This document shows, one piece after another, positions 2-44,291 of a DNA stretch of 64,000 nucleotides. Within the stretch, counting starts at the first letter, position 1; each line of letters opens with the position of its first letter. The DNA comes from a virus (lineage: Duplodnaviria > Caudoviricetes). The stretch is from IMG/VR virus record IMGVR_UViG_3300032303_002587, positions 33,153-97,152 of that record. The stretch is one strand, 5' to 3'. Below the pieces are notes generated by a model. It saw only the letters and a list, made by a program, of their open reading frames with translations, did not search any database and had not been told where the DNA came from. Position numbers and translations under genes: made by a program.

Positions 2-1879
2 TTTGCTTTAGCGAAAACTGGTTTCGCTAAAATTGCTAAAAATTTATTAACATATTTATATAATACTGGAAAATATGAAGTCGTAGAGTATTGCTGTGGA
101 TTACAATATTCTAATCCAGAACTTAAGAAAACTCCTTGGAAATCCGTGGGAACTCTTCCAGATAGTCCACAAGAAATACAAGAATTAAATAAAGACCCTA
201 ATAATGCTAGATTAGCAAGTTATGGGGCTTATCTTTTGGATAGAGTTATTAGCGAAGAAAAGCCAGATATATATATTGCCGCACAAGATATTTGGGGAAT
301 AGATTTTGCAATAGAAAAAAAATGGTTTAATAAAATTGGCTCCGTTCTATGGACAACGCTTGACTCTTTACCTATATTACCTACAGCACTTCAAAAAGCT
401 CCAAAGATTAAAAATTATTGGATATGGAGCGATTTTGCAACAAAAGAATTGCATAGATTAGGTCATCCTCATGTAAAAACTGTACACGGCCCACTTGATA
501 CAACTAATTTCTTTAAATTAGATGACTCCAAAAGAAAAGAGCTTAGAAAAAGGTTTAATATAGAAGAGGATGCATTTATCATTGGATTCGTATTTAGAAA
601 TCAATTAAGAAAAAGCGTTCCAAATTTACTAGAAGGTTACTCGTTATGGAAAAAACAAAACCCACAAGTTAAAAGCTATTTACTTTTGCACACGCATTGG
701 GGCGAAGGATGGAATATACATAAATTAGCAGATGAATACGGAATAGATAAAAAAGAAATTTTAACAACTTATATTTGTAAAAACTGTTTTCAATATGAAA
801 TAAAACCTTTCTATGGTCATGATTTAAATTGTAGATTTTGTGGTTCTGAAAAATCTCAGACGACTTCAAATGTATCAATTGGAGTTGATGAAGATCAACT
901 TAATGAAATATATAATTTAATGGATGTATATTGTCATCCTTTTACTAGCGGTGGCCAAGAGATTCCTATTCAAGAAGCTAAACTTGCAGAATTAATTACA
1001 TTAGTAACAAATTATAGTTGCGGAGAAGATATGTGTGTAGATGGGGCTGCAACTCTTCCCCTAGAATGGTTTGAATATAGAGAGCATGGAACAGAATTTA
1101 AAAAAGCATCAACTGATCCTAAATCAATTGCACAAAATTTAAATAAAGTTTTTAAAATGAGCCTAGAGGAAAAAATTAAACTTGGCAAACAAGCTAGAGA
1201 ATGGACAATTCAAAATTACTCTATACAAAACATAGGCAAGATTTTTGAATCTTTTATAGATAATTCTCCAGAAGCTAATTTTGCTTCAATAGAAAACGAA
1301 GAGCTTAGAGATCCATTTTGCCAAATACCAGTTATAGAAGATAATTCTCAATGGTTGATTTTCATGTATCACAATATTCTAAAAATGAAAAATGTTGATC
1401 AAAATGATAGTGGGCATCAATATTGGATGCACGAAATAGAAAAAGGAATGAAAAGGCAAGATATAGAAAATTATTTCAGACAAGTCGCTACGAAAGAAAA
1501 TCAACAAATGAAAAAAGTAGATTTTCAAGATATCCTAGATAAAGATGATGATGGAAAAAGAATGATTTATGTAATTCCAGAATCAGCAGAAGATGTATTT
1601 TTATCTACAAGCCTTTTTAAGAATATTAAAAAACAATATCCAGATTATAAATTATATGTAGCTACAAAAGAGGAATATTTCTCTATATTAAAAGGAAATA
1701 AATATATAGACAAAATTATTCAATACTTTCCTCAAATGGATCAATTGTTTTGGCTAGAAGGAATTGGAGATCATAAAGGATTTTTTGAAATAGCATTCTT
1801 GCCTTATTTAGGAACTCAAAGATTAATTGATTATACTCATAATGGCAAAACAAAAATAGAATTTAATTTAAATAACTAA
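2..1879 (+). CDS. Glycosyltransferase (GT-B, GT4-like) with a Zn-ribbon insert and a C-terminal GT9-like N-domain; 5'-truncated by the window edge
   Basis: The frame is open from nt 2 (FALAKTGFAK..., resembling the GT4 N-terminal TGF motif). It contains RNQLRKSVPNLLEGY and LNEIYNLMDVYCHPFTSGGQEIPIQEA (donor-binding region), a CKNC...CRFC insert, and C-terminal EDVFLSTSLFKNIKKQYPDYKLYVAT resembling the GT9 N-terminus. Confidence 0.85.
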   Translation, partial: FALAKTGFAKIAKNLLTYLYNTGKYEVVEYCCGLQYSNPELKKTPWKSVGTLPDSPQEIQELNKDPNNARLASYGAYLLDRVISEEKPDIYIAAQDIWGIDFAIEKKWFNKIGSVLWTTLDSLPILPTALQKAPKIKNYWIWSDFATKELHRLGHPHVKTVHGPLDTTNFFKLDDSKRKELRKRFNIEEDAFIIGFVFRNQLRKSVPNLLEGYSLWKKQNPQVKSYLLLHTHWGEGWNIHKLADEYGIDKKEILTTYICKNCFQYEIKPFYGHDLNCRFCGSEKSQTTSNVSIGVDEDQLNEIYNLMDVYCHPFTSGGQEIPIQEAKLAELITLVTNYSCGEDMCVDGAATLPLEWFEYREHGTEFKKASTDPKSIAQNLNKVFKMSLEEKIKLGKQAREWTIQNYSIQNIGKIFESFIDNSPEANFASIENEELRDPFCQIPVIEDNSQWLIFMYHNILKMKNVDQNDSGHQYWMHEIEKGMKRQDIENYFRQVATKENQQMKKVDFQDILDKDDDGKRMIYVIPESAEDVFLSTSLFKNIKKQYPDYKLYVATKEEYFSILKGNKYIDKIIQYFPQMDQLFWLEGIGDHKGFFEIAFLPYLGTQRLIDYTHNGKTKIEFNLNN

Positions 1880-1890
1880 TAAAATTAATT

Positions 1891-3048
1891 ATGCACCTAG
1901 TAGAAAAATATGCGACGTCTTGTGGAATTAGAATAAATAAACCAGAGATTTATGAAAAATTTTTTCCAGTACCATTTAATAAATATATAATATTTTGTCC
2001 TAAAAATACTAAAAATGGAGCAGAATATGATCATTGGCAAATAGTTATTGATACGCTTGTTCAATTCATGAAAACGCAAGAAATTCATATAATACAAATT
2101 GGTGACAAAAATTCTAAAAAATACACTAATTGCGCTTTTATTGATGAGTCAATAATTGATTTTCAAAATTTAACTTATCTTATTAAAAATTCAGAACTTG
2201 TTTTAGGTGTTGATACTGTAGCTAATCATATAGCTTCTTCTTTTAGCAAAAAAATAGTTGGGCTTTATTATAATATAAATATAGAAAATGTTAAACCATA
2301 TTGGGGAGAAAAATCTAAACAGAAATTATTATATCCAAAAATTTTTACAAAACCATTTTATGGCTCAAATCTAAATCATAAATCAATTAATTCTATCAAT
2401 CCAGAGGAAGTAACCACAAGCGTTTTAAATTTATTAAATATTAAATATGGAAGTATGATTAATACAATTTTTATTGGAAATAATTTCCATAATAGAACAT
2501 TAGATGTTATTCCAGATGGGCCACTTAATTTAGAAATTTTGAATAATGTTCAAAATCTAATAGTTAGAATGGATTTATGTTTTGATGAAGCTATATTAAA
2601 TAATCTTTTATCTTATAAAAAATCCATAATAATAACAAAAAAACCGATTAATACAGATATAATAAAAAATAAAAAAGCAAATATATTACAAATAGTTTAT
2701 ATTCTAGATAAAGATAATGATCCTAATTTTATTAAGTTAATTAAAAATAATAATATTCAGTACACTTTGATATCAGAAGAAACAGACGAAACTATTAATA
2801 CCTTTAAATTAAAATATATGGATTATGGTTTAATATTTAAAAAGAATAAAAATGAAAAGACTTTTGAACTGCCCAAGGATAAAGAAATCTTTTTTAGATG
2901 TTCTAAAAGTTATTTCTCATCAAAAGGTATTTTTAATGGCAAATATGCATGGTTAAATAATTTACAAAATTCTCAAAATATAACTGATAATGAAGCTTTT
3001 TGGGAAGATTTACAAGATTTGCATATTTTTACTATTGACAATTCATAA
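1891..3048 (+). CDS. GT9 (heptosyltransferase-like) C-terminal-half glycosyltransferase protein
   Basis: HLVEKY..., IIQIG and YLIKNSELVLGVDTVANHIASSFSKKIVGLY match the GT9 D-S/T-x-x-x-H-l-A motif. Confidence 0.75.
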   Translation: MHLVEKYATSCGIRINKPEIYEKFFPVPFNKYIIFCPKNTKNGAEYDHWQIVIDTLVQFMKTQEIHIIQIGDKNSKKYTNCAFIDESIIDFQNLTYLIKNSELVLGVDTVANHIASSFSKKIVGLYYNINIENVKPYWGEKSKQKLLYPKIFTKPFYGSNLNHKSINSINPEEVTTSVLNLLNIKYGSMINTIFIGNNFHNRTLDVIPDGPLNLEILNNVQNLIVRMDLCFDEAILNNLLSYKKSIIITKKPINTDIIKNKKANILQIVYILDKDNDPNFIKLIKNNNIQYTLISEETDETINTFKLKYMDYGLIFKKNKNEKTFELPKDKEIFFRCSKSYFSSKGIFNGKYAWLNNLQNSQNITDNEAFWEDLQDLHIFTIDNS

Positions 3049-3063
3049 TATAACAGATATACT
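3035..3063 (+). promoter_or_regulatory. Sigma70-type promoter TTGACA-17-TATACT, 6 nt before the ATG at 3070 (leaderless geometry)
   Basis: Near-consensus hexamers, 17-nt spacer, no Shine-Dalgarno (SD). Confidence 0.8.
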
Positions 3064-3069
3064 CATAAG

Positions 3070-3867
3070 ATGAGTCCAAAAATTAAAGATAATCAACAAA
3101 CAATTTCAATTGGTAGTCAAGAGCTTGAGAACATTAACATTGTATCAGATCTAAATATTCCAAAAGTAATACCTCCTAATATTATTACAAGAAATAAATA
3201 TGGTCTTATTGACGATACAAATTTAAACTATATCTTTAATGATGATGGTACGATTAATTGGCGTAAAATGGTTAAAACCGAACATCTTGTACCAAATAGA
3301 CAAAAAACCCAAGAAGCAGACGTTTCAAAACTTCAAGATAAAGATCTTCTTATTCTTTTAGGTGGCATCAAAGAACTAGCTCAAATACGTGGTTATACAA
3401 GAGTAGAATACAATGTAGTTTCTGCAACAGAAAGCTATTTTGCAACAAGTTGTCGTATAACTTGGATTCCAAATTATGAAACAGATAATAAAGAAATAGT
3501 ATTTGAAGCTCTTGCTGATGCTACATGTAATAATACAAAATCTTTTGCTAGATTTTTCTTAGCTGCAATTGCTGAGAATAGAGCTTTTGTTCGTTGTGTG
3601 CGTAATTTTCTTAAAATTAATATCGTATCTCAAGAAGAGCTTGGAGACGCTAAACTTCTTGATGAAGCTGTATCCATTCAAGAAAACCCAACTTCTCCAC
3701 ATGTTCTTTTAGAAAAAGTTATGAAAGATAGAAGCGTAACTTTTGAAGTTTTAAAAAATAAATTAATAAAAGAAAAATTTGATAATGCTGAAAATTTAAA
3801 TACTATTAATGACATTCCAAAAGTAAAAATATTCGAACTGATAGATAGAATCAAAAAAGCAAAGTAA
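3070..3867 (+). CDS. Putative Rad52/Erf-like single-strand annealing recombinase
   Basis: AAIAENRAFVRCVRNFLKINIVSQEEL resembles the conserved helix plus acidic end of the Rad52/Redbeta/Erf superfamily. It sits behind a host-type promoter. Confidence 0.55.
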   Translation: MSPKIKDNQQTISIGSQELENINIVSDLNIPKVIPPNIITRNKYGLIDDTNLNYIFNDDGTINWRKMVKTEHLVPNRQKTQEADVSKLQDKDLLILLGGIKELAQIRGYTRVEYNVVSATESYFATSCRITWIPNYETDNKEIVFEALADATCNNTKSFARFFLAAIAENRAFVRCVRNFLKINIVSQEELGDAKLLDEAVSIQENPTSPHVLLEKVMKDRSVTFEVLKNKLIKEKFDNAENLNTINDIPKVKIFELIDRIKKAK

Positions 3868-3873
3868 TTAAGA

Positions 3874-5432
3874 CTACTGAATTACATTATTAATTGTGCC
3901 TTGCACTGGGTTATTTGTAGTGTCATTTTTATTAAAAGGATTTAAAAATCCAGTTATTCCATAAATAACTAATCTCTGTTGTAGTCTTCCATTATTAATA
4001 TAACCATCACGCACATATGTAGAAATAGGTTCTATTGGTCCAACTGTACCAATTACTCCTCGTGTTCCATCTTGTGTAAAAGCTTGTCCTCTTACGCCTT
4101 CAGATCCGTTTACTTTTAGTAAAGACTGAACTCCATTTTGACCATTTAGCCCTTTATTTCCTGGAGAATTTTGAGGAAAAAATGGTCCTTGACTTTGAAT
4201 ACCAGCATTTCCTTGTGTACCTATTGATGCTCCAACTCCATTTTCTCCACCATCGCCTTGAAGAATAGCTGGATTTGGTACAGCTGGGGGGCCTTGAATA
4301 CCTATAGTTCCATTTATAGTATTGCCTACGTCTCCATCTTGACCTTTTGATCCTTGTATACCTTCATTATTTGTTCCTGCAATTCCGTTATCCCCCCTAA
4401 TGACTTCTCCATCTAAACCTTGTGGACCAGCTCCAACGTATGCTGGTCCATTAATACCAATGATTCCATCTGATCCAACTGCACTATTAGAGTCTCCGTT
4501 TTGTCCTTGCGATCCTTGCACGGCTGGCCCATCTAATCCAGCGTTTCCGTTATCTCCTCTAACAGTTTGTCCATCTAAACCACCTGGTCCAACCCCAATA
4601 TATGCTATTCCATCTAGACCAGCAACTCCATCTGATCCAACTGCACTATTAGAGTCTCCGTTTTGTCCTTGCGATCCTTGCACGGCTGGCCCATCTAATC
4701 CAGCGTTTCCGTTATCTCCTCTAACAGTTTGTCCATCTAACCCACCAACCCCAATATATGCTATTCCATCTAAACCAGCGATTCCATTTGATCCAAACGC
4801 TGTAGGTCCGCCTATTCCAATTAAACCTCCACCACCTACGCCACCTCCACCTCCAGCACCTCCTGCTGCTCCGCCACCGCCTCCAATTCCCTGCTCTCCA
4901 CTACCACAGCATTTTAATAAAATTTCTTTTGTTGATAATATTTTAATGCAAGTTCGTTCTGTTTCATTTGGATCGAATTTTATGCATCTAAATTTAGCTG
5001 TTGAATTATTTGGTATATCTGATGTATCTATAAATATATTTTTTGTACTAGAATTTAAAAAGTTTATATTGCTTTCATCTATATCTGTATGTAAATTAAT
5101 TTCATTAAATATATTATTATTAGTATTTAATAAATCTCCTATTTTAAAATCTCCAGATCTGCTAGAAGTATTAAAATTAATTGAAAATTGATTTTCGGCA
5201 GTTGTTGTTTTTTGAGCAAAATAATTATTTTTATAATCTGTAAATATTTTTGTATTATTAAAATATCCGTCTATACCAGTCTCTATTGGAAAATTAGAGT
5301 TAAAATTTATTTGTTTTACAGCGCATTCATCTAATTTACTGTTAATATATAGAGCATTAAGACCAGATCCGCTAATATATTTATCCCAACATATTCCACC
5401 TAGATCTTGTACTTGTTTTAATACATTTGGCA

Positions 5433-5433
<1 letters not shown>
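3874..5433 (-). CDS. Gly-rich, interrupted collagen-like fibre protein (paralogue of 5433-6782)
   Basis: G-X-Y runs and poly-Gly. Likely start is the GTG at 5433 overlapping the upstream TAG (TAGTG); the ORF track start is 5484. The N-terminus QVQDLGGICW...IFIDTSDI...AKFR aligns with [10 protein letters not shown]...ISIDTIDL...AQFR. Confidence 0.75.
4465..4740. repeat. Identical 114-bp direct repeat (4465-4578 and 4627-4740; period 162 nt = 54 aa)
   Basis: Base-by-base comparison shows two identical copies inside the collagen-like gene. Confidence 0.95.
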
Positions 5434-9363
<3,930 letters not shown>

Positions 9364-9365: not shown

Positions 9366-12020
9366 TTAATTGATTACAGCGATTATATAATTTGGAATAA
9401 TTGGACTTATTCCATTAGATATTACAGGTATTTTTATACCAGTAACTAAATTATTAATTGTATTTCTCCCAGTTATATAAAGATTACCAGACATAGCATA
9501 ATTATCATAAAAATTTCTTTTTTCTATTGATATATTTATTTTATTTATATTTGATGGTATATTAGATCCAGAAGTATATTTATTATTAGTTATATAATTA
9601 TTATTTTTAAAATTAATATTTCCAGTAGGAATTAAATTACCAGAAGAATCTGAATAACAATATCCAGTAATAATATTAAATGTACCAGTAAATGTTTTTT
9701 CATAAGCTATATCTGTTAAACCAGTTAATAATAAATTATAATTTCCACTTGCTATTCCTGTTGCAATTATTGAACTTACATATCCTGTGTGAATGGACCC
9801 ATTAATGCTTTGAGTAATATAGTCTTCATACGATAAAATACCATTTTCTACAAATCCAGAAACTTGACCAGTTATAGTGCTATAAGATATATCATCTAAA
9901 ATCATTGAAACTTTTTTAACTTCTCGTGATGAAATTATATATCTATTTCCATTTTCATTAAATGAACAAAAATCATTCGACATGCTTTCGTTACTTTCAG
10001 TTCCACTAAATTTTAAAGTTTTTTCCCAATTATTACCATATCCAGTATAAATCCAAGCTTTACCAGAGTTATTATTCATAACTGGACTTGTTAATAAGAT
10101 TTTATTTCCTATTGAATTTATTGCAAGCGCTCCACCGACTCCTTCTCCTCCAACAAATGTATTTGCTAAATTCCAATCTTGACCATTTCCTGTAAATAAA
10201 TAAGCATGACCCAGACTACCAGCGCCATAAGAACAATTTGCAATTATAGAATTTCCATCTCCATTTATACCAATTCTTATAGGAAATATTTTATTACTTC
10301 CAATTGGATAAATTTTTTTACATAAATCCCAATTATTTCCATTACCCGTGAATATATATGCTAGTCCAGAACTATAAAAATTTTCACCAATTACAATTAC
10401 ATTACCAGAATCATTTATAGCTATACTTTGACCAAAATAACCATTTGTATAACTCCCAGTTAATTTTTGCTTTAATGTATAATTTAAATTATTTCCAGTG
10501 AATATCCAAACCGCACCTTTACCGTTATTATCACCTGCCCCACCAACTAAAGCTATATTTCCAGATTTATTTAAAGCAACGCTCGTACCAAAGTATGAAT
10601 TATTTGCTCCAGTTAATTTTTGGTAATTCCAATTATTTCCAAATCCAGTATAAATATACGCTGCACCACTACCATTATCATCACTTCCAGCACCAATTAT
10701 CATTTTATTACCAATATCATTTAATGATAGTGATCTGCCAAAATTACTATTATTATCAAAACGAGATATTAATCCGACTTGATTCCAAGTGTTATTACGT
10801 CCACTAAAAATATAAACAACATTTTGCTGAAATACGCTTCCACCAATAGCAGCAATATTACCTTCGCTATTTAATTTAGGAGAATTACCAAAACCAAAAT
10901 TACTGCCTCTTAGCGTGTCTAGAGAATATCCTTCTCCAGAACCAAGGGTTGTAGCTTGATTAGTTAAAAAACCATTCAAATAAGTAAATTTATTTACATC
11001 AGAGTATATTTTTCCAGTTACAATACTATTATTCAATAAATTTATACCACTTCCTGTTGCTAAAAATGATTTAGATAGATATCCAGATCCATTTATAAAA
11101 CCACTTAATGTAGCATTAATTCCAGTACTTATACTTATCTCTTGTGAAAGTGTTCCTGTATATCCAGAAGCATATTCAAAAATAAATGATAAATTTTTAT
11201 CTATAGAATATGATCCAGTTTCATTTCCTAAACCAAAATCAACTCCTAAAACATAAGATTCTGTATTTACTTGGGCAGGTTCAATATAAAATGTTTCTGA
11301 AATTTTATTTATATCAAAATAATTTACATAACCAGTTGTAAGATATTGGCTATTTAATTTAAATGTCCCAGATATTTTACCAAAATTAGTATATAATCCA
11401 AAAATAAAATCACCAGTTTTATCTAAGTATAATTGTTTTGTTGTATCAAAATCTGGAGTTACTATAATATTATATTTTTGACCAGAGATATTTTGATTAA
11501 AAGAAGGAATTGCATTTATACTAAAGTTAGAATTAGCTGGAGAGATTATATCGCCGCTATAAATTTTAAAATTTAAATTTTGATTTCCGCTTATAAATCC
11601 AGTAATATTTCCTCTTACATAATAAAAATTATTAAAATCTAATTTATAATTTGGTCTATCCCCATTTATATAAAGCTCTGTTGTCCCTATGCATCCAGAT
11701 GTATTAAAATAGAATCTATCAAATTTTGTATAACTTTTTGAACTTATATTAGATAAATAATAATTATTAATATAATAGTCATATCCACTAAGATTTATAT
11801 TTCCAGATAATTTTATATTTTCATTTGTATTATAAGTATAGATTAATTTGTTTTCTGGATCAAATATTTTACCATTTGTAAATTTAAAATTAATATTTTG
11901 ATTAATGCCAGTAAAACCTAGATTACATAATCCATTAATATTATCTAAAGAGACATCAATAAGAAAAGAAATTCCAGTTTGCTCACTAATTGATAAAATA
12001 TTATTTCCAGAAAGGTTCAT
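9366..12020 (-). CDS. Tail/virion protein with a central FG-GAP-like beta-propeller
   Basis: Repeats of FGxSx(A/S)LNxxGNxxxxG...GAxYIFTG; lies in the tail-tip operon. Confidence 0.75.
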   Translation of the reverse strand: MNLSGNNILSISEQTGISFLIDVSLDNINGLCNLGFTGINQNINFKFTNGKIFDPENKLIYTYNTNENIKLSGNINLSGYDYYINNYYLSNISSKSYTKFDRFYFNTSGCIGTTELYINGDRPNYKLDFNNFYYVRGNITGFISGNQNLNFKIYSGDIISPANSNFSINAIPSFNQNISGQKYNIIVTPDFDTTKQLYLDKTGDFIFGLYTNFGKISGTFKLNSQYLTTGYVNYFDINKISETFYIEPAQVNTESYVLGVDFGLGNETGSYSIDKNLSFIFEYASGYTGTLSQEISISTGINATLSGFINGSGYLSKSFLATGSGINLLNNSIVTGKIYSDVNKFTYLNGFLTNQATTLGSGEGYSLDTLRGSNFGFGNSPKLNSEGNIAAIGGSVFQQNVVYIFSGRNNTWNQVGLISRFDNNSNFGRSLSLNDIGNKMIIGAGSDDNGSGAAYIYTGFGNNWNYQKLTGANNSYFGTSVALNKSGNIALVGGAGDNNGKGAVWIFTGNNLNYTLKQKLTGSYTNGYFGQSIAINDSGNVIVIGENFYSSGLAYIFTGNGNNWDLCKKIYPIGSNKIFPIRIGINGDGNSIIANCSYGAGSLGHAYLFTGNGQDWNLANTFVGGEGVGGALAINSIGNKILLTSPVMNNNSGKAWIYTGYGNNWEKTLKFSGTESNESMSNDFCSFNENGNRYIISSREVKKVSMILDDISYSTITGQVSGFVENGILSYEDYITQSINGSIHTGYVSSIIATGIASGNYNLLLTGLTDIAYEKTFTGTFNIITGYCYSDSSGNLIPTGNINFKNNNYITNNKYTSGSNIPSNINKINISIEKRNFYDNYAMSGNLYITGRNTINNLVTGIKIPVISNGISPIIPNYIIAVIN

Positions 12021-12022: not shown

Positions 12023-14248
12023 TTAATTTCTTATACTTACTTTATTTGGTCTTATTCTTTGCATGACTAGTTCTTGACTAGGAAGTTCTGGGGCTCTGCT
12101 TCTATAACTTAAATCTGCAAATGATCCATTTTCATCAATATACATTGATAAAGAACTTAAGCCTTCATTTGGCGTTAATGGAAACTTATTTATATTTTGA
12201 ATACCAATTACTTTTATACTTATTGTTTTTTCTGGATCAGTAACTGTTTGATTTATTGGGAAATACTCTGTTCCTCCAGAATTATCTTGAGTACTTAAAT
12301 TAGCTTTCATTGGTATTATTGAATCATTTCCAATCATACCGCCATTAAAATTATATTTACTTGTAAATGGTATACTAATTTCTGTATCTTTTGTTTCTAT
12401 TCCATAGAATAATTCTCTTACTGGCAATTTTATTTTAACGCTACTTCGCTCGTAAGTTATAGTTATAGATTCCGAATCAGAAGATCTATGTCCAATATTC
12501 TTGACAATAGTTGCCCCGCCTCCACAACCAACTTGCGCTTTACAAATTTCTTCTTCTGCTGACGCGCTGCAGGGTCCTGCGCATGGATCTTGACTTGAAT
12601 CTTCTGAAGTATTTCTATTTATATAATAGCCATCGGAAATCATTGGCTCGCAATTATTATTAGAATCAGTAAGCGCACTAAATTCTGCTGATATAGGTAT
12701 AGAATTAGAGCTAGGAACTAAAGCCAAAAGAAGCCTTCCTTGAGCATAAAGCGCTTCGATTTGCTGTCCAGCCGATATACTTAAAGCATTCAAAAGCGAC
12801 AATCTTACTTGTCCAGCGTAATCCATATATACTGGAAAATATTTTTCTAAATCACCATAAAAAAATAATTCTTCTATTTTTGGACAATAAGTTGGTTCTT
12901 TTTCAATGTAATATACACCCTTTGAATAAACGTTAAGATCTGGCATATAAGTTGAAGTAACTTTTAATTTTGATCCATCTTTATAACATGCATCAATATT
13001 TACTGGATTTGGATCTCTGCTATAAAAATATCTTCCATAACTATTAAAAATTGCTTCTTCTTGACCTTGCCAATAAGTTTCTAATTTTGGATCTTCTATA
13101 AAAAAATTAAATTTAGCATTCATACCACCAAATTTTTTATAAAAATCTACATAAGTTTTAACATCAAATCCTTCTTCAAAAACAGTTTGCGGATCTATTG
13201 AAACATCAAAGTTAATTAACCCTATTCTTTCCCATAATCCTTTTTTCATAAAATAAAGTTTTCTAGCATTGGCATCAATTTTCCCTAAAATTGCACCAAT
13301 AAATGATTGTTTTTCTGATCCACTAAGATTTGGCGGTAATTCAGAACCTAATGTTGAAGTAAAATATAAAGGATTAGAAAAACTATAATTTGAAGTTGTA
13401 AGTCCTCCTGGGGTAAAAGAAAAACCTGCTGAAGAAGTTTCATAGGTATTTTCTATTGTTTTTGATTCTGAATATGAAGCTAGATAAGGATTATTTTTTG
13501 ATATTGTTGGTACCTGAATACCTTTTTGTAAATCATAAATTATTAAAGTATTAGTGGTCCAGTCAAAATAAAAATCTGCCGCAATATCTCTACAAATATT
13601 TGACAAAACTTCTCTTGCTGTTCCAGTATAATTTACTTCATAACCTAGATAGTCAGATTGGAAATTAATTTGAAATCCAGATCTTTGCCCTAATGCGGCT
13701 ATAAAATTTCCAACAGAATACATAACTTCAGGAATATCGCAACCATTACTTGAAGGCCGTTCTCCTCCCATGCATAACAAATTATTAGTGATAGCATACC
13801 CACCAATTAATCCCTTTCTCGTTACAGACCCTGGGATCTCATTTACTTCCCCATTACATGGGCACTTTGCTACTATTTGTATAGATCTTTCCATTTGACT
13901 TGTATCACCAAAAATGTCTGGAGAGCAATGCCTTCTTACCAATCCTACAAATAGTTTATCTAATAAATAAGATTTATTGGTAAAACTAAAATTACAAACA
14001 TTTTGACCTGGAGAAAGATTCTTTTCGGAACTAATTAAATAACATTCATTAAAAGATGTATTTCCTATTTTAATTGAAGCAAACCTAGATCCAAGTTCCA
14101 TTTCTTCACCATCAACTACGCTTAAGGTAACTTTATCTAAATTTTGAGAATATCCAATATCAAATTTTATATTGAATATATCTCCACCAGCAAATTTTCC
14201 TGGAGGATTATTACCAACCGTTACCTGTTCTATCTTTTGCCTAGGCAT
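12023..14248 (-). CDS. Putative tail-tip/baseplate hub protein
   Basis: Position downstream of the tape measure. YTGTAREVLSNICRDIAADFYFDW resembles hub/Tal-type folds. Confidence 0.5.
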   Translation of the reverse strand: MPRQKIEQVTVGNNPPGKFAGGDIFNIKFDIGYSQNLDKVTLSVVDGEEMELGSRFASIKIGNTSFNECYLISSEKNLSPGQNVCNFSFTNKSYLLDKLFVGLVRRHCSPDIFGDTSQMERSIQIVAKCPCNGEVNEIPGSVTRKGLIGGYAITNNLLCMGGERPSSNGCDIPEVMYSVGNFIAALGQRSGFQINFQSDYLGYEVNYTGTAREVLSNICRDIAADFYFDWTTNTLIIYDLQKGIQVPTISKNNPYLASYSESKTIENTYETSSAGFSFTPGGLTTSNYSFSNPLYFTSTLGSELPPNLSGSEKQSFIGAILGKIDANARKLYFMKKGLWERIGLINFDVSIDPQTVFEEGFDVKTYVDFYKKFGGMNAKFNFFIEDPKLETYWQGQEEAIFNSYGRYFYSRDPNPVNIDACYKDGSKLKVTSTYMPDLNVYSKGVYYIEKEPTYCPKIEELFFYGDLEKYFPVYMDYAGQVRLSLLNALSISAGQQIEALYAQGRLLLALVPSSNSIPISAEFSALTDSNNNCEPMISDGYYINRNTSEDSSQDPCAGPCSASAEEEICKAQVGCGGGATIVKNIGHRSSDSESITITYERSSVKIKLPVRELFYGIETKDTEISIPFTSKYNFNGGMIGNDSIIPMKANLSTQDNSGGTEYFPINQTVTDPEKTISIKVIGIQNINKFPLTPNEGLSSLSMYIDENGSFADLSYRSRAPELPSQELVMQRIRPNKVSIRN

Positions 14249-14280: not shown

Positions 14281-16374
14281 TTAGATAGCATTAAATCTAT
14301 AAGATTCAGATGCATAAATCGGTTGCTCTTTGGGAGATTTTTGTTGATAATCCTGTATAACATCATTATTGCAAGATAATAATATATAATCATCAAATTC
14401 TTTTTGTAGTACACCATTTAGCCATATCATATCTGATCCATAATTTGGTTTTAGATCAAAGAACCCAGTATTTGAACCAGTTATATATTTTAGAGCATTA
14501 TCTTCTAATATATAAATTTCGCCAGTTGTTAATAATGTGCTATTATTTAATCGAATATAAGCAGCAATACTTAAGTTATCTCCAAAATAATTTAAATTAT
14601 CTCCATTATATAATAAATCTCCAAAATTATACTCATAAAAATATTGATAATTGTAATTATTTATTAATTTTTGGCCATTTAAAAATAAATTTAATTCTCT
14701 AGATGGAATAGTAATTCTCGATAATTGATTTTGTCCAGTATAATCAAACTTGTATTCAAAACTATTAGATGGAAATTGTTTATAAAATACATTATCTTTA
14801 TAATCTCCTTTATAAGGATCAACTATTAACTTTTTAATATCATTAATTTGATAATATCCAGACATTATATCTACGCCATTAAAAAACACAAGATTTTTAT
14901 TATCATTTAAATTAGTTTCAGAAGTATAAATATCTCCGCCTAAGCTATAACTTGTGCTTCTTAAATTATTAAAGAGTTCGTAACTTTGGACTTCTATAAA
15001 ATCTTTATTATCTATAGGTTTATAAAGTACAAGATAATTTTTGGCAAAAATATTTGCGTTACCAGAGTTATAATCTTGTATAGTTATTCCACTTTCGGTA
15101 TAAGACGTTGAAGCGGATTGAACTAATTGATATTGAATAACTTCTCCAGTTAAAAGACCAGTTACTCCAGATTTAAGATAAAAAATACAATCACTTGTAC
15201 AATTTGTTACTTGCTCTGTTTCTACTAATTCATATCCAGTTATTCCTGTGCCAATGTATCCAGTAGTCAAATATCCACTAGATAAAAGATTATAATTTGT
15301 TTCGATTATAGTTTGAGACCCAGTATGTTCTCCAGTTTTAATAAAAAGTTTAGATAAAGAAAGCTCTGTTTCTTGATCCAAAAATCCAGTAAACAATAAA
15401 ACATCGCTCAATAAGCCCCTGTAACCAGTATAGTAATTTTCATTATAACCAGTAAAATTATTACCAATATATACTTCTTTTTCTTGATTTAAAAAATTAT
15501 AGGTTGTATTTATTGACTCACAAAAATTTCTATTTGTCAAAAAGTCATGATAACAAACTGAGAGATTGTGTTTAGAGCCATTTAAAGATATAATGTTTTG
15601 ATTAGCTAATTCCCCTGTACAAATTTTATTAGATATAATAGATTTACCGCTATATGATCCAGAGAACTCAAACATAAGTTTATAATTATTAGTAATTGCA
15701 ACTTTTAAATCAAATGGATAATTTGAATTATTTTTTGATCTTAGATTTATTAATGATTGAGCTTTGCCAAATAAAAATTGAGATGAAACGCTTGCAGTTT
15801 TACCCAAAAATTGTTTTGGTAATTTATTTGCCATTCCTTCTGTTATTAATTGATAATTAGACCCATTAAAATAAGACCAATCACCATAATCTCCAAATGT
15901 ACCGCTATTATCAAATACTACAAATTTACCTAATCTTTGAAATTTAACTCCAGAAGTATAAGAAGTTCTTCCGTAAAATTCATTATCTAAAGTAATTCCA
16001 ACTGGACTACTTAAATTTTCAAGATCAACATCTATATAGTCTGGATTACATCCATAACTTTTTATATTTAATATTAAGTTAAAATTTTCAAAAGGTAGAT
16101 CTTTAGATACTTTTAATCTATCGTTTCCTTCAAAATAAGCCATTCCAGTAGGTCTATAATTCTTATCATAACAATTTGTTAAATATCCAGGAAAGTAATC
16201 TTGAAGAATATATTTATTTCCATTAATTTCGCCATATTGGTCTTCTCCAGAATTTATTAAATTTTTAACAAAAAACCCAGAAGTACTATCTTGTTCAAAA
16301 TTATAAAATATACAATTTATATCAGTATTAATATAATTATCATTTAAAAATTTATTTAAATATTGTAATTGCAT
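14281..16374 (-). CDS. Virion structural protein (LamG-like region, repeated (V/L/I)(F/W)xNG motifs)
   Basis: VYIGNN...GLLSDVLLF; VFFNGV, LFLNGQ, IWLNGVLQ...DY; tail operon. Confidence 0.6.
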   Translation of the reverse strand: MQLQYLNKFLNDNYINTDINCIFYNFEQDSTSGFFVKNLINSGEDQYGEINGNKYILQDYFPGYLTNCYDKNYRPTGMAYFEGNDRLKVSKDLPFENFNLILNIKSYGCNPDYIDVDLENLSSPVGITLDNEFYGRTSYTSGVKFQRLGKFVVFDNSGTFGDYGDWSYFNGSNYQLITEGMANKLPKQFLGKTASVSSQFLFGKAQSLINLRSKNNSNYPFDLKVAITNNYKLMFEFSGSYSGKSIISNKICTGELANQNIISLNGSKHNLSVCYHDFLTNRNFCESINTTYNFLNQEKEVYIGNNFTGYNENYYTGYRGLLSDVLLFTGFLDQETELSLSKLFIKTGEHTGSQTIIETNYNLLSSGYLTTGYIGTGITGYELVETEQVTNCTSDCIFYLKSGVTGLLTGEVIQYQLVQSASTSYTESGITIQDYNSGNANIFAKNYLVLYKPIDNKDFIEVQSYELFNNLRSTSYSLGGDIYTSETNLNDNKNLVFFNGVDIMSGYYQINDIKKLIVDPYKGDYKDNVFYKQFPSNSFEYKFDYTGQNQLSRITIPSRELNLFLNGQKLINNYNYQYFYEYNFGDLLYNGDNLNYFGDNLSIAAYIRLNNSTLLTTGEIYILEDNALKYITGSNTGFFDLKPNYGSDMIWLNGVLQKEFDDYILLSCNNDVIQDYQQKSPKEQPIYASESYRFNAI

Positions 16375-19895: not shown

Positions 19896-19898
19896 ATG

Positions 19899-36100: not shown

Positions 36101-36112
36101 GTCTATATATAT

Positions 36113-36932: not shown

Positions 36933-36935
36933 ATT

Positions 36936-39647: not shown

Positions 39648-39694
39648 TTTAAATTATGATTAACTAATAATAAATTTAACATATAATATTATAT

Positions 39695-40111: not shown

Positions 40112-40280
40112 GATCTTTTTCCTTTACTGCATTTTCGATCCCACTTTGATGATCAACTTCTTTTTGAGCTTCTTGGCGCTCTTTCATTTCTTTTGTATTC
40201 TTCGCACCGAATACGTTATTAATTGCCGCGAATATTCCAGATACTGCTGAAAGTAGTGCTGTTAATATTCCAGTTGGCAT
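40080..40280 (-). CDS. Small membrane-anchored coiled-coil protein, putative i-spanin-like
   Basis: N-terminal hydrophobic helix plus charged coil; overlap with the lipoprotein gene. Confidence 0.5.
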   Translation of the reverse strand: MPTGILTALLSAVSGIFAAINNVFGAKNTKEMKERQEAQKEVDHQSGIENAVKEKDLEQARKHISS

Positions 40281-40282
40281 GA

Positions 40283-40732
40283 TTACTCTACGTAACTTGC
40301 TGTAGCGTCTTTACATCCAGATGCAATAGCGTTAAGTACCTTTACTGCAAGAGCACTATTTCCGTCTAGTCTAGCAAATTGTTGAGCATAAAGATCTTTG
40401 ATTACAGTAACATAATTTGCCCAATGAGTTTTTTCTGCTGGAAGATAATCGTTAAGAGCTTTTTGAAGTTGTTCTGGAGTTGGAGTCGTCCCAACCGTTA
40501 ATGCTTCTACAATTGCTGCTACATTGTTGATCATCTTAGCTTTTTCAATTCTATCGTTACCAGAAACTGCTTGATCAAGAACAACAGTACAAGCTAATAC
40601 TACTGCTGGCTTAACATAAGAAAGAGTATTTTCAACACTTGTTGCAACATCGACTTTTCCAGTTTGAGTTGTAGCGCAAGCACCAAGAAATACGCTCAAA
40701 AGAGCAACTGCGACTAATTGTAATTTATTCAT
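40283..40732 (-). CDS. Lipoprotein
   Basis: MNKLQLVAVALLSVFLGA-C lipobox; GGAGA SD. Confidence 0.7.
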   Translation of the reverse strand: MNKLQLVAVALLSVFLGACATTQTGKVDVATSVENTLSYVKPAVVLACTVVLDQAVSGNDRIEKAKMINNVAAIVEALTVGTTPTPEQLQKALNDYLPAEKTHWANYVTVIKDLYAQQFARLDGNSALAVKVLNAIASGCKDATASYVE

Positions 40733-41013
40733 ATGTTTTCTCCATTTGTTCTATCTTTTGCTTCAGTTGTTTGAGCTACTGTTCCGCCAGTAACTGCTGC
40801 ATCTTTTACTGTTAATGCAAAAATAATACCAGAAACAACTGCTATTAATTTTGAAATTCCGAGTATATAAACTTCTGCATTATCTGGAAGAAATGCTACT
40901 AGTGAAGGATCAGAATGAATTGCTATTGCTGTGCAAACTGCTACAACTGTTGCAATTCCAGATGAGCTAGATCTCCAATTGGGGCCAAATATTTTAGATA
41001 GCATAGTTTTCAT
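40729..41013 (-). CDS. Putative holin
   Basis: 94 aa, NWRSSSSGI start, two hydrophobic segments, ...TVKD; heads the lysis block. Confidence 0.65.
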   Translation of the reverse strand: MKTMLSKIFGPNWRSSSSGIATVVAVCTAIAIHSDPSLVAFLPDNAEVYILGISKLIAVVSGIIFALTVKDAAVTGGTVAQTTEAKDRTNGENI

Positions 41014-41018
41014 AATAG

Positions 41019-41025
41019 ATTACAC
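41019..41025 (-). promoter_or_regulatory. GTGTAAT motif 5 nt before the holin ATG
   Basis: Intergenic copy. Confidence 0.7.
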
Positions 41026-41046
41026 ATTATTACAAAAGAAAAATAT

Positions 41047-43095
41047 TTAATATTCAATACATGGAATAGGAGCTCTGGCTAAAGATGTAACAAATGAGCT
41101 CCCAATTGTAGCATTTAAATCTACGCCAGTGTCCCAAAAAACCGCAGTAGAATTTCCATTAAAAAGAGTTGTATTAAAGGTTGGTTCTCCAAAGATTTCT
41201 CCAAAAGTCTGAGCTGATGATGCCCTAAAGGTTGCAGCTGGTGATGATACTCCTGTGTTTGATGTGGCTATAATATATGGCCCCTTTTTTAGAGTTAAAG
41301 GTATATTTGCTTTGAAAATTCCTGTTGTAGTGCAATTAATAGATCCGCTGTGAAATAATTTAGCTCCTTGAAAACCATCCTGCCCAGAATATATACCATA
41401 TCTAATTGGAAATGAAGATAGTGCGGCGGCACCGCTACTAACTAATTCAATAGCTATTTGTGGATTTACAGCATCTTTTCTAATAAGAAATGGAAAATAT
41501 TGAATATTTTGATAACTTGGCGAAGAACTAGTGGTGCTTCCAACGCCCATAGGTCTATATCTTCTTACTGCAGAGCTTGCTGGAAAAATATCTGCTAAGG
41601 TTGGAATATTTGATGTTCCTAATAAATTAACGGTTCCATCTCTTATACTAATATCAACTCCAGAAAGATTCAAAGAATCAATACTATCTAAATTAATTCC
41701 TTCTGCAAATGTTTTGATTCCGCTAATAATTTGATCTCCAGTTGTATAAACTATTGTACTTGGTAATTGAGCAGCTTCTCCACTTAGTAGCACTCCAGTA
41801 TTATTAACCATCGGGCGCGATGAAAATGTTTTAATTCCACCGATAGTTTGATCTCCAGCAGTATAAACTCCGTTAGTAACAGTAGCAGCGTTACCATTAA
41901 TTGACCCAGCTATAGTGCTAGAAAATGTTTTCGTCCCAGCGATAGTTTGATTGCCATCTAATAAAACTGCTTTTCCACTTAATCCCGTGACAAGAGAAAC
42001 TGAAGCTATTTCATTTAAATATTCAATATCGTCATTTCTAGAAGCAATTCCAAAGACCCATTTATTTCCAGGAGAATCATAACCTAAAACTGCTCCGCTG
42101 TCATTTATTCCACTCAGCCCACTTCCAGTAATGAAGAAAATTCCGCCATCGGTTGCTGGACCGTGAACTCCACCTCCACCAGTAACATTAAGAAGCATGT
42201 AGTTACTTCCAACGTTTATACTGCTTGTATTGATGATAGATTGTATGCCCGTTACTGTTAAATTATTTATAGTTAAATTTCCTAAAAATGTTTTATTACC
42301 ACTTACATTTTGATTTCCCGTTAAAGAAACAACTTCATCAGATAAAGCTATATCTCTAAGAGAATAATCACCAGTATTTAATATTTGTGGTCTTCGATTT
42401 TGAAAATAATAACTATCTCCTTGAAAAACTAAACCATGATAATCAGGATCAAAAATTATTGATGTTTCTTTTGTATCATTAGCTAAAACAAATTTCATTC
42501 CTTGTGGCGTATCATCTAAGCCACTTATAACAAGATTATAATCATCATCTGAATAAATAGCGTTTTCAGGACCACCTATTTGTATTGCGCCTTGAAATTT
42601 TTTATTCCCATGAATAGTTTGATTTCCGTTTAACAATACTCCTTCACCAACTAGGACTATTCCAGAATAATTAACATACGGTCTTTTATTTAAATTTAAA
42701 ACTCCTGTTTTATAACTTACATTAATATAATCTCTAACTATTGTTCCGTCGTCATTGTACTTAGTTCCAAATAGAAATCTTGCCGCTTCACCAGAGTTAA
42801 ATTGAATAAATGCAAATTTGCTACTTGGAGCATTTTTTCCCATTTGAAAACTATGCTTATTATTTGTTAAAATAATATCTTTATTACCAAAATTCAAATT
42901 AATTATTGGAATAGTTTGTTCGTCGTTTCCAGAAACAAAAACTATTGGATCTATGAAATATTGTTCTATTCCACTTAAAACTAAAGCGGCTTTACTGCTT
43001 CCACTAATTTGATTAAAAGAAAAACTATTATATGGATAATTTGAAATTATATTACTATTCATTATGAACTCTATACATAAGGATGGGTTACGCAA
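41047..43095 (-). CDS. Fibre-like virion protein with G(N/D)QTIxGxKTF repeats (alternative start 43062)
   Basis: Five G(N/D)Qx(I/V)xGxKxF repeats typical of phage fibre shafts. Confidence 0.75.
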   Translation of the reverse strand: MRNPSLCIEFIMNSNIISNYPYNSFSFNQISGSSKAALVLSGIEQYFIDPIVFVSGNDEQTIPIINLNFGNKDIILTNNKHSFQMGKNAPSSKFAFIQFNSGEAARFLFGTKYNDDGTIVRDYINVSYKTGVLNLNKRPYVNYSGIVLVGEGVLLNGNQTIHGNKKFQGAIQIGGPENAIYSDDDYNLVISGLDDTPQGMKFVLANDTKETSIIFDPDYHGLVFQGDSYYFQNRRPQILNTGDYSLRDIALSDEVVSLTGNQNVSGNKTFLGNLTINNLTVTGIQSIINTSSINVGSNYMLLNVTGGGGVHGPATDGGIFFITGSGLSGINDSGAVLGYDSPGNKWVFGIASRNDDIEYLNEIASVSLVTGLSGKAVLLDGNQTIAGTKTFSSTIAGSINGNAATVTNGVYTAGDQTIGGIKTFSSRPMVNNTGVLLSGEAAQLPSTIVYTTGDQIISGIKTFAEGINLDSIDSLNLSGVDISIRDGTVNLLGTSNIPTLADIFPASSAVRRYRPMGVGSTTSSSPSYQNIQYFPFLIRKDAVNPQIAIELVSSGAAALSSFPIRYGIYSGQDGFQGAKLFHSGSINCTTTGIFKANIPLTLKKGPYIIATSNTGVSSPAATFRASSAQTFGEIFGEPTFNTTLFNGNSTAVFWDTGVDLNATIGSSFVTSLARAPIPCIEY

Positions 43096-43904
43096 TTAAT
43101 ATAAATACCTTTATTCTCCAATGAGTCTTGTCCAAAAGTATATCCATAATTAGAACAATTTTTAAATGTGCCCTTTATTTGAGTTGCTTGAATACCAAAA
43201 GAAGCTTCTCGCGCATGACAATTTTCAAAATTCCCATTAACTTCTATACCAGCAAAACCAAAAGATAAAAAACCACCAATACAATTCGTAAAAGTTCCAT
43301 TTACCCATCCAAAAGCACCAAAAGAATAATTACCAGCATAAACATTATTGTAAGTACCATTATAAGTTGTTCCAATTCTCATTGATTGAACAGATTCTTT
43401 GAGGGTAATAAAATTAACATTTTCTATATATGTATATCCAAAATTTTCTCCTGGACCAATATTTCTAAAATATGCAGATGGTAATAAATTCAATCTATCT
43501 TGAAAATATCGTTTATCTTCTCTCGATAAATTTTCTGTATGCCATAAAGATATGTAAGATAAGTTGGTATTTTTAATTGTTAAATTTCTTAAAACAACAT
43601 CATCTTTTAATTGATTAATTGTTCCATTATTTTCAACTCCAATATCTGAAGTTATAACACTTCGATCTTTTTCATCTAAACCAATAATATCAATACATTG
43701 ATAATTTAAAACCAAAGAAGATTTTCCTAAATCAAAAGTTCCAGGCTCTAGATATATAGTATATCTATTTTCTCTATTAAAAAGCTGCCGTGAAATTTCA
43801 TAATATTTTGAAAGTAAATTTTTTCCATTTTCTAAAGGATCTTCACCAGCTTTTAAGATAAAACTTTTAGAAGATTCTCTAGGTATTAAATTAAGATAGT
43901 TCAT
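43071..43904 (-). CDS. Parallel beta-helix protein (pectate-lyase-like fold)
   Basis: IYLEPGTFDL; LRNLTIKNT; repeated GTFxNCxxxxxSFG. Confidence 0.6.
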   Translation of the reverse strand: MNYLNLIPRESSKSFILKAGEDPLENGKNLLSKYYEISRQLFNRENRYTIYLEPGTFDLGKSSLVLNYQCIDIIGLDEKDRSVITSDIGVENNGTINQLKDDVVLRNLTIKNTNLSYISLWHTENLSREDKRYFQDRLNLLPSAYFRNIGPGENFGYTYIENVNFITLKESVQSMRIGTTYNGTYNNVYAGNYSFGAFGWVNGTFTNCIGGFLSFGFAGIEVNGNFENCHAREASFGIQATQIKGTFKNCSNYGYTFGQDSLENKGIYINCVTHPYV

Positions 43905-43910
43905 TTTAAA

Positions 43911-44291
43911 TTATATTCCTGGATTACTTGTGATGGTTGCCCATCCAGAGTAATACGAGTTGTTTACACCTAATAATTCTATGGATTCGTTTTTTTCCAA
44001 AGATATTGAATCAACGCTATCTATATATGCAGAGCCAGTTATAGTTGTAATTCCACTACCAATATTTTTTATATTAAATCTTAATCCGTTTGATACTGTA
44101 GGTAAAAAACCAGTAACTCCAGAAGCATAATTTACTAAATTTAAGTAATTGCCTGTGATATTAAAATTACCAGTATGATAAGTAAAATTACTACTAATAA
44201 CACCAATATTGCTAATTCCAAGAAATGATTGATTTATATATCCAGAAAGTTCCGCCACATCTAATTGCTTCAAACGAATTAAATTTGGCAT
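43911..44291 (-). CDS. Small virion structural protein
   Basis: LPTVSNGLRFNIKNIGSGITTITG...IDSVDSISL pattern of small fibre-associated domains; follows the portal. Confidence 0.55.
   Translation of the reverse strand: MPNLIRLKQLDVAELSGYINQSFLGISNIGVISSNFTYHTGNFNITGNYLNLVNYASGVTGFLPTVSNGLRFNIKNIGSGITTITGSAYIDSVDSISLEKNESIELLGVNNSYYSGWATITSNPGI

Follow-up and report, generated by a model that had tools for sequence, protein, structure and literature searches.

The L-T-G-K hairpin of ubiquitin (L8-T9-G10-K11) is the textbook case of a hydroxyl residue standing before glycine in a tight β-turn. GT9-related heptosyltransferases such as AAH and TibC modify serine and threonine residues on the β-helix passengers of autotransporters, following a structural rather than a linear motif, and the glycosylating enzymes of mycobacteriophages reportedly act on subunits of the capsid and tail tube and not on a dipeptide scattered over tail-tip proteins. 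Virion glycosylation by phage-encoded enzymes exists (Freeman 2023, as cited in PMC12582341), while the glycosyltransferase (GT) SgtA O-GlcNAcylates the threonine of G-P-T repeats and tolerates serine (PMC7157674), and the xylosylation site of proteoglycans is Ser-Gly (PMC4598785). GT-A and GT-B enzymes by which phages hypermodify their DNA with glycans occur widely (10.1101/2023.12.21.572611; PMC13326640). The stretch analysed here, called the window, comprises 64,000 nucleotides (bases 33153-97152) of one 97,152-bp IMG/VR virus contig (G000; GC content about 30%; 65% complete according to CheckV). It encodes tail and fibre proteins rich in the dipeptides Ser-Gly and Thr-Gly, hereafter (S/T)G, together with GT4-like and GT9-like proteins, and a sequence-only reading had proposed that (S/T)G is a sequon glycosylated by these enzymes. 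The (S/T)G excess is a protein-level, position-specific grammar confined to a handful of all-β distal-tail and fibre proteins, and it is taken here, with a probability of about 0.55, to be a folding grammar of β-hairpins and β-bulges in these proteins.

Expected counts were obtained from 2000 composition-preserving shuffles of each protein. Five proteins, all encoded on the minus strand, are enriched in (S/T)G, namely a collagen-like fibre protein of (Gly-Ala-Thr)n type (449 residues; 5433-6782; 66 observed against 22 expected, z 12), an 884-residue distal tail protein (9366-12020; 51 against 18.9, z 8.6), a 697-residue distal tail protein (14281-16374; 27 against 8.0, z 7.5), in which 49% of the glycines are preceded by serine or threonine, a 682-residue fibre protein (41047-43095; 29 against 13.8, z 4.8) and a 126-residue protein (43911-44291; 8 against 2.9, z 3.5, p 0.001), whose enrichment is borderline once corrected for 47 proteins. 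The remaining 83 open reading frames of the genome sum to 238 (S/T)G against 254.6 expected. The earlier hand counts of 51, 27, 29 and 8 for the last four of these proteins were exact on recount, and the absence of bias from terminase, portal and PhoH is borne out by the shuffles. The statement that (S/T)G is frequent in tail and fibre proteins holds for the five proteins above, while other tail and fibre proteins are neutral or depleted; the observation is real, strong and conserved, yet confined to few proteins, and is in this sense partly confirmed. The collagen-like protein has a genuine collagen repeat (PF01391, E 4.5e-32), and 66 residues of serine or threonine before glycine are indeed counted in it, but they stem from about 75 copies of a single 9-bp tandem unit (5548-6243). 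All of its (S/T)G thus comes from the triplet repeat and provides no independent sites or evidence.

The enrichment survives the control for composition (z 8.7, 6.9, 4.8 and 3.7 for the 884-, 697-, 682- and 126-residue proteins), as shuffling inside windows of 40 residues, which keeps the local composition, leaves the z values of the enriched proteins unchanged. A composition artefact is ruled out by the agreement of the global and local shuffles. Ranked by over-representation, TG and SG come first among the 400 dipeptides in the 884- and 697-residue proteins, where NG and DG are not over-represented, and all residue classes other than serine and threonine are depleted before glycine (observed-to-expected ratio, O/E, 0.34-0.81). 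The density of the tetranucleotide CTGG is 11.3 per kb in the phase whose codons spell the dipeptide (xCT-GGx) and 0-0.14 per kb in the other phases; as it is raised in the coding phase only, the signal acts on the protein and not on the DNA. A DNA motif or mutational bias is ruled out, since CTGG is phase-bound and the other genes are unbiased. As to codon usage, the codon before glycine at 115 sites is ACT in 37% and TCT in 27% of cases and TCA in none (0/115), while TCA makes up 16% of the serine and threonine codons elsewhere in the same enriched genes.

The bias is retained across wide sequence divergence. All 21 full-length homologues of the 884-residue protein, down to 30% identity, have O/E values of 2.6-3.5, and those at 31-33% identity retain 53-61% of the sites. 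The 23 close homologues of the 697-residue protein are without exception biased (O/E 2.7-5.2), with 42-64% of their glycines following serine or threonine. A profile search of 1.8 billion representatives extends this family to a superfamily of 242 members, in which the 133 members of at least 300 residues show a median O/E of 2.5-3.1 in each rank bin as far as E about 1e-10, the bias being absent from just 5 of them, and it holds across varied amino acid composition. In the complete relative used for comparison (G007; IMGVR_UViG_3300027763_000027, 171,916 bp), enrichment is limited to orthologues or analogues of the tail and fibre proteins (937 residues, z 9.7; 602 residues, z 7.4; 550 residues, z 4.4; 1374 residues, z 4.5; 1870 residues, z 4.8), and the rest of that genome sums to 346 against 388. 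Some relatives were found through a degenerate DNA pattern for [YF]LNGQKLxSG. Twenty T4 proteins used as outside control (including gp5-12, wac, gp18, gp23 and gp34-37) have z values of at most 2.1, and a general trait of phage fibre and baseplate proteins is ruled out for T4 as well as for the other β-rich virion proteins of this phage.

In the 884-residue protein, an FG-GAP propeller of seven blades is flanked on both sides by β domains, one N-terminal and one C-terminal. Both the profile match (PF14312, 45.5 bits) and the fold identify the central part as an FG-GAP/integrin-α propeller; six blades show the motif G.A(Y/W)(I/L)(F/Y), and the AlphaFold model (predicted local distance difference test score, pLDDT, 78) is all-β and resembles integrin α headpiece propellers in Foldseek (E 2.7e-14). 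The blade ends noted in the sequence-only reading are present as Y(I/L)(F/Y)(T/S)G. In FG-GAP_2 proteins of cells, the corresponding hairpin of the blade (YVF-x-R-[ST]-G-x-x-W) also contains [ST]G and is unconnected with glycosylation; for cellular FG-GAP proteins the (S/T)G O/E is about 0.7-1.8. Counted by domain, (S/T)G amounts to 23 against 7.9 (z 6.3) in the N-terminal domain, 14 against 7.1 (z 3.1) in the propeller and 14 against 3.4 (z 6.6) in the C-terminal domain. FG-GAP domains as the sole source of the excess are therefore only partly true, as they cover the least-enriched third of the protein.

The sites share the context hydrophobic-[S/T]-Gly-x, with L, I, F, Y or V at position -1 in about half of the 115 sites. 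The serine and threonine columns that precede glycine in the 884-residue family are 83.5% serine or threonine, against 50.6% for other serine and threonine columns, and the glycines of the sites are 87% conserved, against 61% for other glycines; serine and threonine interchange at many of these columns. In the 697-residue superfamily, whose mean column identity is 17%, GITGY, SGxTG and LTG are among the few consensus positions left, and 10 of the 16 conserved glycine columns are preceded by a column with a serine or threonine majority, each with a fixed preference for one of the two. The minority residues at these columns, F, M, V, I and Y among them, are of the kind usual in strands rather than in free surface loops. 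According to DSSP applied to the AlphaFold model of the 884-residue protein, the glycine lies inside a predicted strand at 21 of the 51 sites, at a strand end at 15 and in a loop at 15, while the 57 other glycines are distributed as 7, 15 and 35, respectively; in or at the end of a predicted strand are thus 36/51 sites against 22/57 other glycines. The expectation that the sites lie in surface loops fits these data poorly, given the in-strand positions, the hydrophobic residue at -1 and the hydrophobic replacements, although the hydroxyl may sit exposed on a bulge.

From the shuffle statistics, the conservation of the sites and their placement in predicted secondary structure, we infer a structural role. 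Hydrophobic-[S/T]-Gly-x would mark tight β-hairpin turns and β-bulges, in which glycine may provide the unusual backbone angles and the hydroxyl of serine or threonine may cap the backbone, and the neighbouring glycosyltransferases would not be needed to account for the motif. Three sub-populations of sites are no more than known repeats, namely the G-A-T triplets of the collagen, the FG-GAP blade hairpins with their "(S)G(N/D)" loops, and the BppL_N-type repeat [ST]G(N/D)Q..G.K.F. Since the sites are the best-conserved positions of fast-evolving proteins, folding is a likelier role than decoration, and the hydrophobic residue at -1, the frequent in-strand location, the fixed serine or threonine of each column and the occasional hydrophobic replacement favour it likewise. 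A bias that spans a whole superfamily and persists with different sets of accessory glycosyltransferases is as expected for a property of the fold.

Several observations weigh against this structural reading. Neighbouring all-β proteins of this phage show either no bias or a deficit, and the 741-residue distal tail protein (12023-14248, minus strand), whose gene lies between two enriched genes, has only 4 (S/T)G against 9.7 (O/E 0.41), its G007 orthologue being likewise depleted (7 against 10). The 884- and 697-residue families have no detectable homology and yet share the grammar, their common ancestry being ruled out by BLAST and hhalign (profile probability 1%). Enrichment in the 884-residue protein is strongest outside the FG-GAP propeller, so that most of the sites are not accounted for by known repeat motifs. 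Of the glycines in the T4 control set, 11-28% follow serine or threonine, against 45-64% in the enriched families. The usual turn formers asparagine and aspartate are not used before glycine (O/E of [ND]G 0.67 and 0.81, against about 2.8-3.0 for [ST]G, in the 884- and 697-residue families), and ordinary turn statistics fail to predict so strict a choice of serine and threonine. The exclusion of asparagine and aspartate, the presence of the grammar in unrelated families and the depleted β neighbours are not explained by a hairpin and bulge grammar, and the bulge or hairpin geometry itself is that of predicted strands rather than of coordinates.

The plus-strand gene at the left edge of the window (2-1879) encodes a putative GT4-like glycosyltransferase (PF00534, 32 bits, cut-off 26.4; phrog_2170 glycosyltransferase). 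The full gene (L002:15121-17031) begins 32 nt before the window and encodes 636 residues, of which the N-terminal 429 alone give 29.3 bits with PF00534; the protein itself is unbiased (4 (S/T)G against 3.2). Its AlphaFold model (pLDDT 81) has the canonical GT-B fold with two Rossmann-like domains. In Foldseek, the model comes closest to MshA (3c4q, E 1.4e-15), to a chlorovirus NY-2A glycosyltransferase (3oy2), to BshA and to PimB', and MshA, BshA, PimB', PimA and glycogen synthase all fall in the range E 1e-15 to 1e-11, with a target-normalised template-modelling score of about 0.75. The protein matches 3640 metagenomic clusters of about 640 residues, and the best 120 of them are full-length and at least 66% identical; it looks like a hallmark core gene of a very abundant uncultured lineage. 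Two further features of the protein are an invariant or near-invariant, zinc-ribbon-like insert of four cysteines in the C-domain (C270, C273, C288, C291) and some 200 residues beyond the GT-B fold, which end in a Rossmann-like β-α-β stretch (531-610). Pfam gives no support for the N-terminal half of a GT9 enzyme being fused to the C-terminus of the protein.

The next gene (1891-3048, plus strand) encodes a GT9-like protein of 385 residues (PF01075, 26.5 bits, cut-off 22), the match being limited to residues 89-137 (49 residues; profile positions 172-220 of 247), a donor-domain-like part. In the viral Atlas clusters nearest to it, 62-78% of the members carry PF01075, and its orthologues adjoin the GT4-like gene in the relatives G001, G002 and G004 (79, 42 and 30% identity). 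The third gene (3070-3867, plus strand) encodes a conserved protein of 265 residues which is not demonstrably a glycosyltransferase: searches of Pfam (to E 5), PHROGs, the PDB and the named Atlas clusters gave no match and no glycosyltransferase signature, and the Atlas clusters nearest to it are viral and belong to no family. Of the earlier proposal that the tail operon meets a GT4-like gene and a GT9-like pair, the GT4-like gene is supported, 1891-3048 has a GT9 signal over 49 residues and 3070-3867 has none. PDB sequence searches with all three proteins returned no relatives. Between this phage and G007 the GT4-like protein is 72%, the 265-residue protein 74% and the GT9-like protein 44% identical.

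About ten soluble glycosyltransferases are encoded in the genome, plus enzymes for GDP-fucose and UDP-galactofuranose. There is a large sugar-enzyme cluster in the left arm, outside the window (L001:8204-15523 and L002:1818-3635; genome 8204-21635), which comprises two GT2 genes, a Fringe/GT31+GT2 fusion, a GT2/GT92 gene, a Branch(GT14)+GT25 fusion (the Branch/GT14 domain gene lying at L001:11838-13367), an Fcl-like epimerase and Gmd (GDP-fucose synthesis), a UDP-galactopyranose mutase (Glf) and methyltransferase-like genes. None of the glycosyltransferases has a membrane segment, no Wzx- or Wzy-like protein is present in G000 or the complete G007, and no lipid-carrier, flippase or polymerase genes were found. 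Of this cluster, only Gmd and the epimerase have counterparts in G007 (79% and 82% identical), the left-arm glycosyltransferases having none; the accessory set thus varies while the (S/T)G grammar stays, and three relatives that keep the bias, G002, G004 and G007, lack the GT14 domain. The enriched dipeptide had been expected to change with the set of glycosyltransferases, and G007, lacking the accessory enzymes of this phage, shows the same one. A full-length GT4-like orthologue occurs in 14 of the 17 related IMG/VR records carrying a family member and in 10/10 of those at least 54% complete, the 3 records without it being fragments of 29-39%; no relative free of glycosyltransferases was found among the 17, and single distant proteins used as queries gave no IMG/VR loci. 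Co-occurrence of enzyme and motif amounts to co-inheritance across the clade and gives no independent evidence of coupling.

In the proposal of the sequence-only reading, the exposed hydroxyl of hydrophobic-[S/T]-Gly is the acceptor of a soluble phage glycosyltransferase, which is considered unlikely here. It is equally doubtful that the GT4-like/GT9-like pair, the only conserved candidates, acts on the sites and that the accessory enzymes extend the glycans with GDP-fucose and UDP-galactofuranose to form a tail-tip glycan coat. No result points to a priming role of the GT4-like enzyme or to an elongating role of the GT9-like one. Nor is there more than a slim chance for a combined version, in which hydrophobic-[S/T]-Gly bulges are a structurally defined O-glycosylation sequon read by the pair, accessory enzymes write lineage-specific glycans, and the motif serves both folding and attachment. 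The idea draws on a sugar toolkit that is large and soluble, without the membrane segments or Wzx/Wzy-like proteins searched for in both genomes, and on a GT4-like core gene that is far better conserved (72%) than the tail proteins (24-35% identity to those of G007) and accompanies the motif in the related records. The preference for serine or threonine before glycine is strict, with the two interchangeable at many columns, so that a conserved hydroxyl residue in a recurrent motif is indeed found on the candidate substrates; the bias occurs in unrelated families and is missing from T4, S/T-Gly acceptors have precedents in SgtA and Ser-Gly xylosylation, and phage-encoded virion glycosylation is known. 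Sequons are, however, normally less conserved than the structural core, whereas these are the most conserved positions, many lie in predicted strands after a residue of buried type, and the serine or threonine is sometimes swapped for a hydrophobic residue. A density of 51 sites in 884 residues would be extreme, the motif is missing from other exposed virion proteins, and the bias is unchanged in G007 without the accessory enzymes, including the GT14 domain. The co-occurrence with the GT4-like gene amounts to inheritance within a clade, and the fold matches of this enzyme act on small molecules or lipids and are uninformative on a protein acceptor. The sequon idea is thus plausible but unsupported, and the choice between a sequon and a structural meaning is undecidable by sequence tools and needs experiment. 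On the structural reading, too, the phage glycosyltransferases may modify virion proteins, the likeliest targets being the G-A-T collagen and the (Pro-Thr)n tracts of the 856-residue tail protein described below, both of which are more conventional candidates for O-glycosylation acceptors than (S/T)G.

The glycosyltransferase genes may also be unrelated to the motif, the GT4-like/GT9-like pair and the left-arm cluster modifying phage DNA or host envelope glycans instead, which seems quite improbable but is compatible with the structural reading. The pair lies on the plus strand right after genes for PolIII α, exonuclease, primase, ThyX and DnaB, outside the tail operon, phage glycosyltransferases for DNA glycans are widespread (10.1101/2023.12.21.572611; PMC13326640), and the four-cysteine insert of the GT4-like protein may bind nucleic acid or protein. 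As regards DNA, none of the genomes G000, G001, G002, G004 and the complete G007 has a ThyA-type hydroxymethylase (PF00303), the controls having matched in 10 of 14 genomes; the described DNA-glycosylation clusters contain GT-B enzymes similar to T4 β-GT and adjoin genes for ThyS or 5mYOX, while the top folds for the GT4-like protein are MshA, BshA and PimB'. Lipid-carrier, flippase or polymerase genes were likewise not found. Chemical stability, a variant of the structural reading that may contribute to the bias, is a further and still more improbable explanation, in which serine or threonine replaces asparagine or aspartate before turn glycines and so protects the receptor-binding proteins of particles that spend long in water, as Asn-Gly deamidates and Asp-Gly isomerises quickly. 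The low O/E of [ND]G beside that of [ST]G agrees with this, as do the DG count of 0 against 3.3 in the 697-residue protein and the counts in the tape measure (DG 1 against 7.4, NG 4 against 10.5). However, all classes other than serine and threonine are depleted before glycine, beyond asparagine and aspartate, a 1779-residue virion protein is enriched in NG (29 against 18), and the unbiased adjacent tail proteins are left without account.

Among the remaining virion proteins, the 856-residue tail protein (6793-9363, minus strand) contains two mucin-like (Pro-Thr)n tracts, with TP occurring 47 and PT 46 times (z 13-14) and tandem arrays at 8408-8584 and 8926-9072, and is depleted in (S/T)G (5 against 12.9). 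A second collagen-like fibre open reading frame (3874-5484, minus strand), with interrupted Gly-X-Y and no enrichment (6 against 12.4), is a paralogue of the 5433-6782 collagen (BLASTP E 6.5e-9). It carries 2.6 copies of a 162-bp repeat at 4375-4796. As annotated, with a TTG start, it shares 52 nt with the end of the G-A-T collagen gene, which makes its true start uncertain. The tape measure (1831 residues; 19899-25394, minus strand; PHROG tape-measure families, E 2e-45) is unbiased (24 against 23.8), and the 621- and 551-residue distal tail proteins next to it (16378-19895, minus strand) show weak or no bias (9 against 5.6; 11 against 5.6, z 2.5), their G007 orthologues differing from each other (550 residues, z 4.4; 545 residues, z -2.4). 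The 697-residue protein itself has no Pfam or PHROG match.

In the portal region, the 682-residue fibre protein has BppL_N-type repeats (PF18338, E 3.3e-21) and matches PHROG tail and virion structural families; 4 of its 29 sites belong to repeats of the form L-[ST]-G-[ND]-Q-x-[IV]-x-G-x-K-T-F. The 277-residue protein (43071-43904, minus strand), encoded between two enriched genes, contains no (S/T)G at all (0 against 3.6), and the 126-residue protein (z 3.5-3.7) adjoins the portal gene on its downstream side. No excess is seen in a 903-residue LRR/FN3 protein (10 against 15.2) or in the 1779-residue protein (51298-56637, minus strand; 36 against 30.7), which has a PA14/GLEYA and two LamG-type lectin-like domains and is a candidate glycan-binding virion protein. 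Part of the 682-residue protein, the 126-residue protein and a 546-residue BNR/propeller protein of this phage (genome 3211-4851, plus strand) all match a single fibre protein of G007, that of 1870 residues (154762-160374; z 4.8), which suggests that fibre modules are split or fused differently between relatives. Depleted neighbours of enriched virion proteins (12023-14248 and 43071-43904 here, 18775-20412 and 161086-165480 in G007) have O/E values of 0-0.4 and z values of -2.1 to -2.6; the non-enriched proteome has an O/E of 0.89-0.93 against 1.10 in the T4 control set, and the depletion is too weak to interpret.

The minus strand is transcribed in the order PhoH, the 1779-residue protein, a sigma factor, an ERCC4 nuclease, terminase and portal, followed by the 126-, 277- and 682-residue proteins, the LRR/FN3 protein, lysozyme and head genes, and at its distal end by the tape measure, the distal tail proteins of 551, 621, 697, 741 and 884 residues, the (Pro-Thr)n protein and finally the two collagen-like proteins. 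The plus-strand replication operon (RecA-like, DnaB, ThyX, primase, PD-(D/E)XK nuclease, PHP, exonuclease, PolIII α) ends in the GT4-like, GT9-like and 265-residue genes and converges on the tail genes. The lineage is very abundant, uncultured and siphovirus-like, with complete genomes of about 172 kb and about 30% GC. Cultured phages gave no match to the window DNA or to the 884- and 697-residue proteins; TerL is about 25% identical to that of Bacillus and Clostridioides siphoviruses, and the GT4-like protein is about 25% identical to cyanophage glycosyltransferases. No tRNAs are present to indicate the host, and the closest genomic match of Gmd, a contig of a low-coverage Caspian "Proteobacteria" metagenome-assembled genome, is probably phage and does not identify it. 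Identities to G007 are 83-97% for replication genes, 84% for TerL, 75% for portal and 71% for the capsid protein, but 24-35% for the distal tail proteins.

If its role is structural, the motif would be a compact signature, simple to score, by which a large family of receptor-binding tail modules, as yet uncharacterised, can be recognised, with an unusually clean turn grammar that avoids Asn-Gly and Asp-Gly; the family of the 697-residue protein comprises 242 representative clusters and corresponds to no Pfam family. Were it a sequon, a predictable site rule for phage virion glycosylation would follow, the first defined sequon of its kind, and the largest of these tail proteins would have as many as about 50 sites. 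The core glycosyltransferase pair found in thousands of metagenomic clusters would then be linked to a substrate, with implications for the shielding or tuning of receptor-binding proteins in abundant aquatic phages. In both cases, the lineage is a strong candidate for virion glycoproteins, as it encodes about ten soluble glycosyltransferases, GDP-fucose and UDP-galactofuranose enzymes, a G-A-T collagen and (Pro-Thr)n tracts.

Compared with known systems, hydrophobic-[S/T]-Gly-x at strand ends and bulges resembles the Gly-bulge β-hairpin of ubiquitin, and the blade hairpins of FG-GAP_2 proteins carry [ST]G in the same hairpin in cellular proteins, the central domain of the 884-residue protein being an integrin-α-type propeller. 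Unlike in these cases, about half of all glycines are involved here, the domains are unrelated, asparagine and aspartate are nearly excluded, the signal is strongest outside the propeller, and the strands are predicted ones. The (G-A-T)n collagen, in which each threonine is followed by glycine and a glycosyltransferase gene lies nearby, recalls BclA of B. anthracis and BclA3/SgtA of C. difficile (PMC7157674), but X is Ala instead of Pro, the nearby GT4-like protein is a GT-B enzyme without a shown relation to SgtA, globular β domains are no known acceptors there, and the present case is known from genes alone. Xylosylation of proteoglycan Ser-Gly by the GT14 xylosyltransferase (PMC4598785) likewise uses a hydroxyl residue and glycine as acceptor, and this phage has a Branch/GT14 domain; by contrast, the domain is absent from the biased relatives G002, G004 and G007, the motif has no acidic flanks, and threonine is as common as serine. 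AAH and TibC share with this locus a soluble GT9-family enzyme and many serine and threonine residues on a folded, β-rich surface protein, although only 49 residues of 1891-3048 match PF01075 and no heptose-synthesis genes are present here.

Among viruses, chloroviruses and giant viruses (PMC9614988) also encode Gmd, an epimerase and many soluble eukaryote-like glycosyltransferases, and the NY-2A enzyme is the second-best fold match of the GT4-like protein, but this match is generic for GT-B and the present virus is a tailed bacteriophage. The mycobacteriophages whose virions are glycosylated (Freeman et al. 2023, as cited in PMC12582341) are, like this one, tailed phages with their own soluble glycosyltransferases, and virion proteins are the likely substrate; they show no sequence relationship to it, and the toolkit is far larger in this phage.

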